Below, one piece after another: positions 13,108 through 57,372 of a DNA stretch of 64,000 nucleotides. Source of the DNA: Halobacteriaceae archaeon (lineage in GTDB: Archaea; Halobacteriota; Halobacteria; Halobacteriales; Halobacteriaceae); contig JBDGTS010000008.1 in assembly GCA_042216675.1 (NCBI GenBank), positions 64,001 through 128,000 of the forward strand, given 5' to 3'. Position 1 is the first letter of the stretch, and each line of letters opens with the position of its first letter. Position numbers and translations under genes: made by a program. The notes under the pieces were generated by a model, which worked only from the letters and a program-made list of their open reading frames with translations, made no database searches and was not told the DNA's origin.

Positions 13108-13317
13108 TCGCCGTCCGGCTTTTCGACCCCTCTCTCCGGTCTCATCAGAACGCAGAGCGTTCTGGTTGGCTCACGAGACGCTCTGCGTCTCGCGAACGTC
13201 GCCAGAAAGGTCCGGGTGCGAGAATCGAACCCGATGGCGAGACTCGCGTCGCTCGTCTCGCGTGGTTCGATTTCGCTGTCCGGCTTTTCCACTCCTCCCG
13301 CTGGTCGTCGTGAAAAA
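13108..13317 (-). repeat. tRNA-His downstream composite repeat (3'-end duplication, antisense T-arm, hairpins)
   Basis: 13210-13233 identical to 13318-13341 (24 bp); 13108-13124 matches 13273-13289 (16/17); hairpins 13146-13164, 13174-13192, 13237-13261. Confidence 0.85.
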
Positions 13318-13390
13318 GTCCGGGTGCGAGAATCGAACCCGCGTCCCAGCCTCCACAAGGCTGGAGGATAACCACTACCCCAACCCGGAC
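13318..13390 (-). tRNA. tRNA-His (GTG), with encoded G-1
   Basis: GTCCGGGTTGGGGTAGTGGTTATCCTCCAGCCTTGTGGAGGCTGGGACGCGGGTTCGATTCTCGCACCCGGAC; anticodon arm CAGCC-TTGTGGA-GGCTG; C73. Confidence 0.96.
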
Positions 13391-14966: not shown

Positions 14967-15907
14967 TGGATCGACCTCGCCGTGATGAGGACGCTCTCGG
15001 CGTCCGCGGGTTCGTCGAGCAGCTCGGTGTCGTTCGCGAGCAGGTAGCGCCCCATCGTCGGGCCGGAGACGCGGTAGTAGCGCCCCAGCGTGTCGGCGGC
15101 CATCTCCTCGGCCACGACGGTCGTGTCGAGGGCGTCCATCGCCATGTCCTTGGCCTCCTCGAGTTCGATGCCGGTCAGGTCCTCGGTGGCCTCCCGGTCG
15201 AAGATGACCTCGTGGACCTCGGTGCCGTCGTCGATGACGCCCTTGATGCGCAGGTCGAACTCGCCCTCGACTTCACCGTGTTCCGAGCACCGGCCGTTCT
15301 GGAGGACGCGGGTGCAGTCCTCCTCGGGACAGCGCTTGATGAGGCCGCTTCCGGACTGGATGTCCACGAGTGCGCCCTCGATTTCCTCGTCGCCGTCGCC
15401 GACTTCGAGGTCCTCGTCCACCGCGTCGACGGTGGTGGTCCGGTTGAGTTTCACCGAGAACCGGCCCTCGTACTCGTCGGTCACGACGTTCTGTAGGTGG
15501 TACACCTCCCCCTCGGCGAGGTCGGGCAGGTCGGACTTGGCCCACGCGGTGAACTTCACCGTTCCCGTGGGGTCGCCGAGCAGTCCGACCTGTCCGACGG
15601 CGTCGCTTCGGGCCTCCCAGAGGTCGACGACCTTCGCGGTCAGGTCGACCCACTGTTCGGCCGCGTCGATGTCCTCGATCCGGACGGTCTCGTTGCCGCC
15701 GCCGCGCCCCCCGAGTTCGTCGCGTTCGAGGCCCGCCTCGTCGAGGTAGTGGCTGACGACGGAGCGGCGCGCCTCGTCGACGGGCACGCTGTACTCCTCG
15801 ACGAGCGTTTCGAGTCGGTCGAGTATCTCCTCGACGGTGACGTCGAGGTGGTCCGAAAACTGGTCGTGTACCTCGTCGGCGTGGGTACGTAGGTCTGTGT
15901 CGCTCAT
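14963..15907 (-). CDS. rpa3: Replication protein A (OB folds plus zinc finger)
   Basis: QVGLLGDPTGTVKFTAW OB fold; RCPEEDCTRVLQNGRCSEHG; DLRIKGVIDDG. Confidence 0.88.
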   Translation of the reverse strand: MSDTDLRTHADEVHDQFSDHLDVTVEEILDRLETLVEEYSVPVDEARRSVVSHYLDEAGLERDELGGRGGGNETVRIEDIDAAEQWVDLTAKVVDLWEARSDAVGQVGLLGDPTGTVKFTAWAKSDLPDLAEGEVYHLQNVVTDEYEGRFSVKLNRTTTVDAVDEDLEVGDGDEEIEGALVDIQSGSGLIKRCPEEDCTRVLQNGRCSEHGEVEGEFDLRIKGVIDDGTEVHEVIFDREATEDLTGIELEEAKDMAMDALDTTVVAEEMAADTLGRYYRVSGPTMGRYLLANDTELLDEPADAESVLITARSIQ

Positions 15908-53103: not shown

Positions 53104-53364
53104 ATGGCAGACCGCTCCGGCGTCCAGAACCTCGTGGAGACGCTCGACGTCCGCCGCCGGGCCGCCGTCGGGTTCGCCGCGGGTGCGGCGCTGGCGGGGG
53201 CGCTCTACGTCCTGTTCGTCGTCGTGCCCGACTCGCCCCATCCGCTCCGCTTTCTCGCGTTGGGGTTCGTCGTCGCCGTCACGACTGGACTACTGTTCAC
53301 CGCCGTACTGGTCGCTCACGCCGCCTATCGGTACGTGAACGAGGAGCGAGACAGCAATAGTTGA
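53104..53364 (+). CDS. Small 2-TM membrane protein
   Basis: Two hydrophobic helices; fills intergenic gap. Confidence 0.7.
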   Translation: MADRSGVQNLVETLDVRRRAAVGFAAGAALAGALYVLFVVVPDSPHPLRFLALGFVVAVTTGLLFTAVLVAHAAYRYVNEERDSNS

Positions 53365-53461
53365 ACGATTGCCCAGTTTTTTGCCGGTGTCCCGCCGTCC
53401 TCGGCGTGCGCAACGGCGACGAACGGCAATTCTTTTCCCGGCCGGTTGCCAATCCGCAGGT

Positions 53462-56058: not shown

Positions 56059-56439
56059 GTGAAACGAATCATCGACACGGACATGGCCCCCGCGGCGGTC
56101 GGCGCGTACAGCCAAGCCACCTCCGACGGCGACACGGTGTACACGGCCGGACAGATTCCGATGACGCCGGACGGAACGCTCCTCGACGAGGACCCCATCG
56201 AGACACAGACCCGCCAGTGTCTAGAGAACGTCGAGGCGATTCTCGACGAGGCTGGCCTCACCACGCAGGACGTGCTGAAGGTGACGGTGTATCTCGACGA
56301 CATCGACGACTTCGCGGCGATGAACGACGCCTACGAGGAGTACTTCCTCGACAATCCGCCGGCCCGGAGCGCCGTCGGCGTCGAGGCACTCCCGAAGGGC
56401 GTCGGCGTCGAAATCGAGGCCGTCGCGTCCGACAAGTGA
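56059..56439 (+). CDS. ridA: RidA family reactive-intermediate deaminase
   Basis: AVGAYSQA, AGQIP, PPARSAV.V..LP; next to ilvA. Confidence 0.92.
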   Translation: MKRIIDTDMAPAAVGAYSQATSDGDTVYTAGQIPMTPDGTLLDEDPIETQTRQCLENVEAILDEAGLTTQDVLKVTVYLDDIDDFAAMNDAYEEYFLDNPPARSAVGVEALPKGVGVEIEAVASDK

Positions 56440-56630
56440 CCCGCCGTCGCCGCGCAGTCGACGCTGCACTCGCGGCGCTGGCGTTTCTGGTCCTCGCGCA
56501 GGGCTACCGCCTCGTCACCGGCGAGGGGCCGGGGGTTCCGCTCCTCCTCGGCGCCGCCGTCGTCGTCGGCGCCGCGGGCGCGACCCTCGCCGGCGCGTTC
56601 GAGCGCCTGCTACGGAAGAGAAGGGTTTAA
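56436..56630 (+). CDS. Small 2-TM membrane protein
   Basis: GTGA overlap with ridA stop; AALAFLVLAQGY.L pattern. Confidence 0.65.
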   Translation: MTRRRRAVDAALAALAFLVLAQGYRLVTGEGPGVPLLLGAAVVVGAAGATLAGAFERLLRKRRV

Positions 56631-56657
56631 ACGGCAGACGCGGATACGAACTACTGA

Positions 56658-56739
56658 GCCGGGATGGCTGAACGGTAAAGCGCACGCCTGGAAAGCGTGT
56701 CCCCGTCAGGGGTTCTGGGTTCAAATCCCAGTTCCGGCG
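56658..56739 (+). tRNA. tRNA-Ser (GGA)
   Basis: GCCGGGA acceptor; CACGC-CTGGAAA-GCGTG; long variable arm CCCC-GTCA-GGGG; CTGGG-TTCAAAT-CCCAG; G73; TTTAAA promoter at about 56626. Confidence 0.96.
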
Positions 56740-56889
56740 CTTCTGCGACGTTCACGAGACACGCTGTGTCTCGTGCGCCAACCAGAACGCGACGCGTTCT
56801 GGTGAGAACGCACGTGAGGAGCGAACACCGTGGGATTTGAGGCACGCGAGACGGAGTCTCGCCATCGGGTTCAAATCCCAGTTCCGGCG
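56740..56889 (+). repeat. tRNA-Ser downstream composite repeat (twin hairpin, antisense T-arm, hairpin, 3'-end duplication)
   Basis: 56867-56889 identical to 56717-56739 (23 bp); hairpins 56753-56775, 56781-56803, 56846-56862; TGGGATTTGA at 56831-56840. Confidence 0.87.
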
Positions 56890-56955
56890 TCTTCATCACG
56901 GATTCCACTGCGCTCCCACACCACTGTTTTCACTGGGGCGGTGCTGTGTCGAGAC

Positions 56956-57180
56956 GTGGACAGTCACCCGTCGTGTCGCGGCTACGCCGCGGTGGTCGTC
57001 GTCGCCCTCGCCGTCCTCTGCATGGCAGTGATCGCACTCGGCTTCCTCGTGCCCGATCGGCTCTTCGAGAGCACCGTGGGGCTGGTTGCCTTCTTCACGG
57101 CGGGCCTCCTGATGGTCGCCTGTGCGGTGGTCGCGAATCTGTACGACCTGCGTGCAGTCCTCCACGACGAATTCGGCTGA
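56956..57180 (+). CDS. Small 2-TM membrane protein
   Basis: Two hydrophobic helices; GTG start assumed. Confidence 0.55.
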   Translation: MDSHPSCRGYAAVVVVALAVLCMAVIALGFLVPDRLFESTVGLVAFFTAGLLMVACAVVANLYDLRAVLHDEFG

Positions 57181-57372
57181 TCACCGGCTGGCGGCCCTGA
57201 GCCCGAGATAGTACGCGCCGCCGACGACGACCCCGGTGACGAGCGCTGCGCCCAGCGCCGCGACCGGTCCCGACGAGTAGTTCAGGACGAACGTGACGAG
57301 GGCGACCACGCCGCCGCCAATCACCGCTTGCCCCCGGAGTGACCGTGCTGACAGCCACGCGTTGAGTCCCAT
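57181..57372 (-). CDS. Small 2-TM membrane protein
   Basis: MGLNAWLSARSLRGQAVIGGGVVALV..; two TM. Confidence 0.6.
   Translation of the reverse strand: MGLNAWLSARSLRGQAVIGGGVVALVTFVLNYSSGPVAALGAALVTGVVVGGAYYLGLRAASR

Follow-up and report, generated by a model that had tools for sequence, protein, structure and literature searches.

The window analyzed here, a 64,000-nt stretch from the genome of a Halobacteriaceae archaeon (G000; 2.15 Mb in 58 contigs, 68.8% GC, 80% complete), carries directly behind its tRNA-Ser(GGA) gene a short repeat-bearing element that belongs to a family of small, gene-less DNA units spread across Halobacteriales, with a period of approximately 95–165 bp. The units stand in tandem arrays of 0–4 directly behind tRNA genes, on the tRNA strand. 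In each, a trailer, which frequently includes a first hairpin, is followed by an inverted copy of approximately 12 nt of the T-loop region, an interchangeable core, and a directly oriented copy spanning the tRNA from G53 through the discriminator; the core module is often a GC hairpin capped by GA-GC-GNA-GC-GA. Tentatively, the units may be regarded as miniature, non-autonomous, cargo-less DNA insertions at the edge of the T-loop that resemble attachment (att) sites and whose inverted arms would have arisen by template switching at a hairpin. The parts of the tRNA-Ser locus are as follows.

56658–56739/40, plus strand: intact tRNA-Ser(GGA) (ARAGORN; Rfam RF00005, 61.2 bits)
56740–56749, plus strand: start of the unit trailer, C-TTCTGCGAC, identical to the start behind many unit-carrying tRNAs
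56750–56805, plus strand: 56-nt twin hairpin, inserted in the unit trailer after CGAC (stems from repeat finder)
56806–56830, plus strand: remaining unit trailer/spacer (sequence reading and trailer comparison with other genomes)
56831–56842, plus strand: antisense T-loop arm, TGGGATTTGA followed by GG (repeat finder)
56843–56866, plus strand: type-c core hairpin with CGCGAGAC/GTCTCG stem, then CCATC (sequence reading; family pattern)
56867–56889, plus strand: exact copy of tRNA-Ser positions ~51–73, that is, T-loop, 3′ strand of the T-stem, 3′ strand of the acceptor, and discriminator

A first-pass annotation of the window had described a 23-nt tail copy, a 10/10 antisense arm, a hairpin, and twin stems at this locus, and each of these was found where it had been placed. 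The direct repeat is exact over 23 nt (56717–56739 and 56867–56889; repeat finder), with a spacing of 150 nt, and TGGGATTTGA (56831–56840) is complementary at 10 of 10 positions to both copies of TCAAATCCCA (56721–56730 and 56871–56880). The hairpin reads CACGCGAGAC-GGA-GTCTCGC-CAT (56843–56865), with its loop shortened to 3 nt. In a scan of 56300–57300 with the Rfam 15 models, tRNA alone scored above threshold, with all others falling far below their gathering scores. In the reads, the organism's own contigs span the unit without differences; a read joint at 56743>56865 was set aside as unusable, being derived from a more abundant other organism and having 23–25 nt on one side.

The other unit of the window lies, on the opposite strand, behind tRNA-His(GTG), and its parts are listed here in the direction of the tRNA.

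13317–13390, minus strand: intact tRNA-His(GTG) (ARAGORN)
13277–13316, minus strand: unit trailer/spacer (sequence reading)
13264–13276, minus strand: antisense arm fitting the unusual T-loop of tRNA-His, GCGAAATCGAACC (sequence reading)
13234–13263, minus strand: type-c core hairpin with the full 11-nt loop GAGCGACGCGA, then CCAT (family pattern)
13210–13233, minus strand: exact 24-nt copy of the tRNA-His 3′ end (repeat finder)
13142–13197, minus strand: second 56-nt twin hairpin, after GCGAC and downstream of the tail copy (repeat finder)
13108–13141, minus strand: incomplete second trailer, repeating 13273–13306 directly over 34 nt at 82% identity (repeat finder)

ARAGORN calls exactly two tRNAs in the window, tRNA-His(GTG) and tRNA-Ser(GGA), and both carry a unit, in agreement with the earlier count of two out of two. 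The junction reported to be common to the two loci is likewise confirmed: the 17-mer GTCTCGCCATCGGGTTC has two exact matches in the window, at 13227–13243 (minus) and 56856–56872 (plus), against an expectation of 0.01 from dinucleotide shuffles, none of 100 of which contained two matches. At tRNA-His, the 34-nt trailer repeat indicates that the duplicated block extends beyond the end of the tRNA. A coding reading of the core (ATG GCG AGA CTC on the antisense strand at both loci) was considered and rejected in view of loop lengths of 3–67 nt, inverted loops and cores, and covarying stems.

Anatomy of the units

In G000, a downstream copy of the last 18 nt of the tRNA (at most 2 mismatches, within 700 nt) was found behind 15 of the 32 tRNAs called by ARAGORN, four of the 32 having less than 70 nt of downstream sequence. 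With two intron-containing tRNAs added by eye and three doubtful ARAGORN calls without the T-loop motif skipped, 24 tail copies were counted at 17 of 34 tRNA loci. The copy starts at the T-loop edge in 21 of the 24, and an antisense 10-mer (at most 2 mismatches, within 90 nt) accompanies 16 of these 21; in all class I units seen, the start is G53/T54. The plan in this genome is constant in its order—tRNA end, trailer, antisense T-loop arm ending in GAA, core, and GTTC with the rest of the tRNA tail. A second class of unit, represented by 18 of 162 scanned copies, starts instead at C61, the 3′ edge of the T-loop. Its members (G000 C37:22492–22557 and loci L047, L069, L008, and L120) are preceded by a GCAAAC..GTTTGC or GGGAC-type hairpin and by an imperfect arm complementary to the 3′ strand of the acceptor; in a gapless test, the antisense arms of this class, which are imperfect and gapped by eye, gave 3 matches versus 7 in the control.

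The constant hairpin core proposed in the first-pass annotation was not sustained, with at least five core families found to be interchangeable at one tRNA, one of them not a hairpin, and with flipped cores also occurring. Type a reads GCAGGGAGC...CGACCGT and type b CGAGAGAACG...CGTTCGCGT, and type c—the type of both window loci—occurs three times in G000, namely behind tRNA-His, behind tRNA-Ser(GGA), and in the second unit behind an intron-containing tRNA on contig C18; cores of other types occur as well. The units contain no open reading frame (ORF) of their own, and the interval between tail copies is 76–144 nt in 68 type-c units.

The structure of the type-c units was analyzed over 84 distinct instances. 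The arms pair over 12 bp, with 68–99% Watson–Crick pairs per position and 29–45% further out, and three positions covary (CG47/TA30, TA50/CG30, and TA67/AT12). The left arm thus tracks the T-loop of the neighboring tRNA, as the claim of cognate-specific arms had held; the pairing described earlier is real and cognate, but it extends over just approximately 12 bp. The position adjacent to the core covaries as well and is therefore part of the module, with true tRNA identity starting at G53. The 11-nt loop conforms to GA-RC-GNA-GY-GA, with tandem GA in 61–62 of 64 cases, triloops that are mostly GAA, GCA, GGA, or GTA, and inner pairs that covary (GC43/AT16 and CG56/TA4). GCGAAGC is a well-known, unusually stable DNA mini-hairpin. 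The loop is oriented in the sense direction in 62 of 64 cases and inverted in 2 of 64.

Covarying stems, a conserved apical GA-RC-NNN-GY-GA, the strong bias toward sense-oriented loops, and the invariable placement of the units on the tRNA strand directly behind the tRNA are all features in favor of the main alternative, which is possible though rather unlikely—that is, that the units are functional structured 3′-trailer RNAs (a terminator, a processing or stability module, or a small RNA) under selection, with the arrays produced by unequal recombination. A T-run follows the distal copy at 13 of 70 loci versus 8 of 70 for the nearest upstream tail copy, which also speaks for a role in the transcript. 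However, several properties of the units are difficult to reconcile with this alternative. Mismatches in the arms are about equally often G.T (25) and A.C (23, with one search-fixed position left out), indicative of pairing at the DNA level or of no strand-specific selection, unlike in a selected RNA helix. Cores occur in either orientation, and one core family forms no hairpin at all; half of the G000 tRNAs carry no unit, and the number at one tRNA varies from 0 to 4 within a genus; and, as noted above, Rfam recognizes no family besides tRNA. At tRNA-His, furthermore, TTTTT lies directly 3′ of the tRNA and is likely a terminator ahead of the unit. Folds of the two strands as single-stranded DNA are about equal (z = −2.3 to −3.5).

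The same kind of loop is also found apart from tRNAs, with 32 GA-RC-NNN-GY-GA-loop hairpins in G000 and 5 in the reversed-genome control; many of the former lie in intergenic arrays flanked by GCGAGC that are similar to repetitive extragenic palindromic (REP) sequences. Behind genes, such hairpins are 3 times sense, 9 times antisense, and 3 times both by crude, over-predicting gene calls (3429), a lack of sense bias that may speak against a trailer RNA. The REP-like arrays were seen at C2:39320–39440, C9:26600–26700, C45:3400–3560, C22:24310–24380, C13:46350–46460, C19:27180–27220, and C1:6950–7050.

Each copy was compared with its nearest upstream partner, and uninterrupted identity was counted from T55. 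It extended over 18–21 nt in 42 of 70 cases, ending no more than 2 nt from the discriminator, and over exactly 19 nt, ending at the discriminator, in 21 of 70; it was longer in 11 of 70 and broken off earlier in 17 of 70. The trailers behind the tRNA and behind the distal copy are often related, albeit diverged, and the repeat reaches 17–45 nt into the trailer at several tRNA-Val loci of one genus (g20). The repeated block is tail plus trailer, with the tail alone kept identical, as expected if the tRNA alone is under selection. The trailer often starts with TTCTGCGAsGArC and carries a first hairpin with a loop of the GA-RC-NNN-GY-GA type.

Contigs C2 (end), C22, C26, C37, C41, and C42 (starts) of G000 break inside tRNAs or units, and the units probably break the assembly. 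Over-long or doubtful ARAGORN calls were also seen near units, such as 93–97-nt calls in G000 and a 96-nt "tRNA-Gln" in locus L178.

Range and turnover of the family

Of 301 genomes of the class, 31 contain the exact type-c pattern, at 37 places in total; the reversed control gave no match. In 28 of 30 fetched loci, a tRNA on the same strand ends 74–288 nt upstream of the core; the other two have an opposite-strand tRNA-Ser(TGA), to which they belong as normal units whose core is flipped. The first-pass annotation had named a tRNA-independent distribution of the core as grounds for abandoning its proposal; in Halobacteriales loci with enough flank, the core was never independent of a tRNA. Among 185,579 species, each represented by one genome, the pattern gave 74 matches, of which 71 lie in records titled haloarchaea or unclassified archaea (Halorubrum, Haloarcula, Halovenus, Halobellus, Halorientalis, Halapricum, Natronomonas, Salinibaculum, and others) and three are bacterial, without T-loop arms. 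An upstream tRNA was called in 58 of the 74, with most others standing at contig starts or having an upstream tail copy. The tRNAs concerned comprise at least 22 species: Arg (three), Gly (three), Ser, Val, Lys, Ala, and Glu (two each), His, Phe, Met, Asp, Leu, and others. A generic arm–insert–arm pattern, built on one T-loop variant with any insert of 18–60 nt, was present in 15 of 19 other sampled Halobacteriales genomes, with up to 25 matches per genome. No match was found in 141 genomes representing 21 further families in the phylum, or in the controls.

Turnover was examined in the genus g20, in which 46 genomes were searched and 30 tRNA-Val(TAC) loci fetched. Zero, one, two, three, and four units were present at 2, 17, 7, 3, and 1 of these loci, respectively. 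Four trailer modules are combined with five core modules in many different ways (16 pairings tallied by eye), with one core inverted and one array made up of three near-identical units. In at least 8 further genomes, the match was limited to the tRNA. With modules conserved and arrangement fluid, the units show the pattern of a multi-copy repeat family under concerted evolution.

Shuffled pairings, near-identical neighboring units, and a repeat that extends to a variable degree into the trailer would all be natural outcomes of a process requiring no dedicated enzyme, in which minisatellite-like replication slippage or template switching at hairpins creates the units and homologous recombination on the T-loop or tRNA body spreads them. 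Cores flipped between inverted arms and the genome-wide intergenic arrays of same-loop hairpins point in the same direction, as does the failure to find a candidate enzyme gene linked to the units. We nevertheless consider this explanation improbable. The left boundary is G53/T54 in the 21 of 24 G000 copies described above and in all type-c instances, unlike what random slippage would leave; the same core families stand behind at least 22 tRNA species, which would need many retargeting events; and the family stops sharply at the Halobacteriales border, although T-loops and hairpins are everywhere.

The twin hairpin and other associated elements

The 56-nt twin hairpin present at both window loci is a separate element, similar to REP sequences and to miniature inverted-repeat transposable elements (MITEs), that is unrelated to the tRNA unit and inserted at both loci by chance. 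In the first-pass annotation, it had been merged with the unit into a single composite; the parts of that composite are present, but they belong to two nested, independent elements whose order differs between loci, with the Ser twin hairpin located between the tRNA and the arm and the His twin hairpin outside the tRNA-to-copy interval. The separation follows from a copy within a gene, from tRNA-free loci in relatives, and from the His unit of a Halapricum genome, which has no twin hairpin. The stems of the Ser twin hairpin are perfect and 10–11 nt long (56753–56775 and 56781–56803; repeat finder), and when its 56 nt are removed, the Ser trailer reads as the consensus TTCTGCGAC-GAACG..GTGAGGAGCGAAC of other genomes.

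The central 13 nt of the twin hairpin have four matches in the genome: one at each of the two tRNA loci, a chance match in an unrelated ORF, and one on contig C10. There, a full twin hairpin (~53340–53395; locus L272, ~1841–1896) lies in frame within an acyl-CoA dehydrogenase gene, the product of which keeps all three Pfam domains. The middle domain has 115 residues versus 96 profile positions, consistent with a 56-nt in-frame insert and local divergence. In locus L006 of a relative, a twin hairpin is seemingly read in the same frame, in the acidic tail of a protein, and gives a similar peptide (..S.ANQNA.RSGD..). In their in-gene, in-frame position, the C10 and L006 twin hairpins resemble the Rickettsia palindromic elements. 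The element is common in relatives, and ARAGORN found no tRNA in 10 fetched loci centered on it, one of which (L010) has a T-arm-like sequence just upstream. All three G000 twin hairpins are preceded by CGAC, and no terminal inverted repeat was seen; comparison with the flanks of the TnpB-like gene of the genome gave mere chance matches of 7–10 nt and no likeness to IS200/IS605-type ends.

Two further elements were observed near unit arrays. Just upstream of the window, a tRNA-Pro(TGG) array (G000 C1:59168–60977) is interrupted by approximately 1.4 kb containing one gene, for a protein of 364 amino acids with a Tat-signal-like and lipobox-like N-terminus; bounded by tail copies and a palindromic element, this stretch is possibly related to the units as a small form that carries cargo. 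The palindromic element, CCAC-TTTTT...GCAAAAACGTGG followed by an A-rich sequence, looks like a two-way terminator hairpin and stands behind several distal tail copies and some genes (G000 C1:60730–60795, C1:59330–59395, C18 ~15725–15790, the end of C10, and locus L013).

Possible origins and comparison with known systems

In the reading preferred here, albeit tentatively, insertion or duplication would always strike the tRNA gene in the same place, at the 5′ boundary of the 7-nt T-loop. The outcome would have the geometry of attL and attR, with the tRNA left intact, the new tail and trailer proximal, and the old tail and flank displaced distally. Mobilization of the units would be in trans, with a tyrosine-type recombinase as the most plausible agent; the sublocation scheme of tyrosine integrases in tRNA genes includes the T-loop. 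The antisense arm would then be the product of an intramolecular template switch extending a palindrome, and no targeting guide. By the quasi-palindrome mechanism, a hairpin 5′ of a sequence can gain an inverted copy of its neighbor through such a switch, and template-switch behavior at the DNA level is also compatible with the inverted loops and cores found between arms. Arrays would subsequently be reshuffled by homologous recombination between common tail copies, arms, and loops.

Candidate enzymes were sought in the 80%-complete G000 genome. It contains one TnpB-like gene and two tyrosine recombinase (Phage_integrase) genes, on contigs C28 and C30, whereas Y1 transposase (PF01797), reverse transcriptase, and Cas1 (PF01867) were not found in the portion of the genome assembled; for the HUH family, named in the first-pass annotation alongside tyrosine recombinases, no Y1/HUH transposase gene was found there.

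Several observations weigh against the preferred reading. No integrase gene lies within the loci examined, and no free element with a type-c site was found among collections of viruses and plasmids: in IMG/VR, the full type-c pattern had 0 matches (19 matches to the 17-mer lack T-loop arms) and the generic pattern matched no contig that is haloarchaeal by GC content and sequence, and in PLSDB and INPHARED nothing matched the His unit, although these collections may simply lack the element. A double-stranded circle of approximately 100 bp is, moreover, an unlikely substrate for recombination. Some units give an impression of age and conservation and not of mobility. Between G000 and a Halapricum genome, the His units differ at approximately 6 of 108 positions (~94% identical) with unalignable flanks, and the copy T-loop variant GTGAGAAT is common to G000 and records titled Halorubrum, Haloarcula, and Natrialbaceae. 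Such conservation also fits selection for function, and the retention of unit and core sequences across families in the absence of flank similarity—a non-hairpin core of approximately 50 nt is ~92% identical by eye between G000 and a genome of another family—is a further argument for the trailer-RNA alternative. The duplicated block often reaches into the trailer, which an exact att crossover does not require, and the distal copies are weakly more decayed than the proximal ones (mean of 1.07 versus 0.46 mismatches in 28 two-unit arrays, at loci chosen through the feature itself).

A further reading, which appears unlikely though worth naming, is that Halobacteriales carry an as yet undescribed class of tRNA-gene-specific mobile units without cargo, inserting at the T-loop edge, copying their target in both directions around a hairpin, and building arrays by CRISPR-like growth. 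Here, insertion would be driven by an enzyme and would proceed through either a folded hairpin acting as att site or a template switch primed at the target, with the tRNA serving as "leader".

Direct repeats of tRNA 3′ segments are the classical mark of integration, and the tRNA-Pro(TGG) locus has 1.4 kb and one gene between tail copies. The units could be imagined as ordinary, decayed attL/attR scars of proviruses or integrative plasmids that have lost their interior. This origin is, however, very improbable: the 76–144-nt interval of the 68 type-c units is narrow and holds conserved modules on two sides and never a gene fragment, deletion of an interior by att × att recombination would remove the whole unit, and approximately 100 loci, together with the collections of viruses and plasmids, yielded no provirus with this core.

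Returning to the units as att-site-like insertions, a comparable arrangement is seen in a large family of small tailed bacterial prophages retrieved from IMG/VR with the generic pattern (7–20 kb, GC ~0.6; loci L146–L225), which have an arm–loop–arm structure beside the integrase gene. Each site runs from an antisense arm through a short loop into a sense arm, followed by the tRNA 3′ end, CCA included, and a terminator; in L185, for example, a near-perfect palindrome of two inverted tRNA T-arm segments occupies 49–99 and the integrase 166–996. These sites establish that arm–loop–arm geometry occurs at genuine integrase sites.

In kind, the unit family is akin to att-site duplications and to REP/MITE-like repeats, and no description of it was found in the literature; the full texts searched, with subscription journals outside the search, describe just ordinary prophage-linked partial tRNA duplications. 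Restricted to a single order, the family marks up to half of a genome's tRNA genes and is tied to almost all kinds of tRNA. Its extra cognate partial tRNA tails would bear on the evolution of att sites, on the calling of provirus borders, and on tRNA annotation, and the units possibly on tRNA 3′ processing. If mobile, they would point to a novel site-specific activity directed at the T-loop DNA of tRNA genes in general; if functional as RNA, they would represent a new conserved part of haloarchaeal tRNA transcripts.

With respect to known systems, viruses and plasmids of archaea land mainly in tRNA genes, and tRNA loci are places at which haloarchaeal species exchange DNA with one another. Integration of haloarchaeal SNJ2-type elements and of Haloquadratum prophages leaves direct repeats of tRNA 3′ segments, according to passages of the respective articles (PMC5861418; PMC3119063). 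Like the att sites of tyrosine integrases, the units combine an intact tRNA with a downstream copy from T-loop to 3′ end and form tandem arrays at one tRNA; they differ in having no integrase or cargo between the copies and an interval of 76–144 nt, in the inverted target copy and hairpin beside the junction, and in that no free form was found. The bacterial prophage family exemplified by L185 has the same succession of antisense arm, loop, sense arm, and tRNA 3′ end, but is bacterial, with 23-nt arms and a full 7–20-kb element encoding capsid, portal, and integrase genes. In the attP(+) of CTX phage and the attC of integrons, which are folded single-strand sites, the stem of an imperfect palindrome rebuilds a duplex copy of the target. 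As compared by anatomy only, these share with the units an arm–loop–arm at one junction alone after insertion; the arms of the units follow each tRNA, which is not required there.

CRISPR arrays grow by duplication of the repeat beside the leader with each new insert, and casposons also target tRNA 3′ ends. The units are similar in that a fixed "repeat" (tRNA G53–N73) is duplicated next to a "leader" (the tRNA body); they differ in having recurring modules rather than unique spacers and no casposon-type terminal inverted repeats, and no Cas1 was found in the 80%-complete G000. REPINs are reportedly small GC-rich hairpin elements. REP sequences, bacterial interspersed mosaic elements (BIMEs), REPINs, and the Rickettsia palindromic elements share GC-rich hairpins, many copies, conserved loops with covarying stems, and an occasional in-frame location within genes, a likeness that fits the twin hairpin and the GA-loop hairpins; REPs inside ORFs are known, as a passage of PMC3733652 records. 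The tRNA units differ from the system of REP sequences and REP-associated tyrosine transposases (RAYTs) in their target-derived direct and inverted copies and their restriction to tRNAs, and no GTAG/CGTC tag was seen. They differ from MITEs in that their inverted repeat is internal (arm–core–arm) and made from the target, and in that copies stand behind tRNAs alone.

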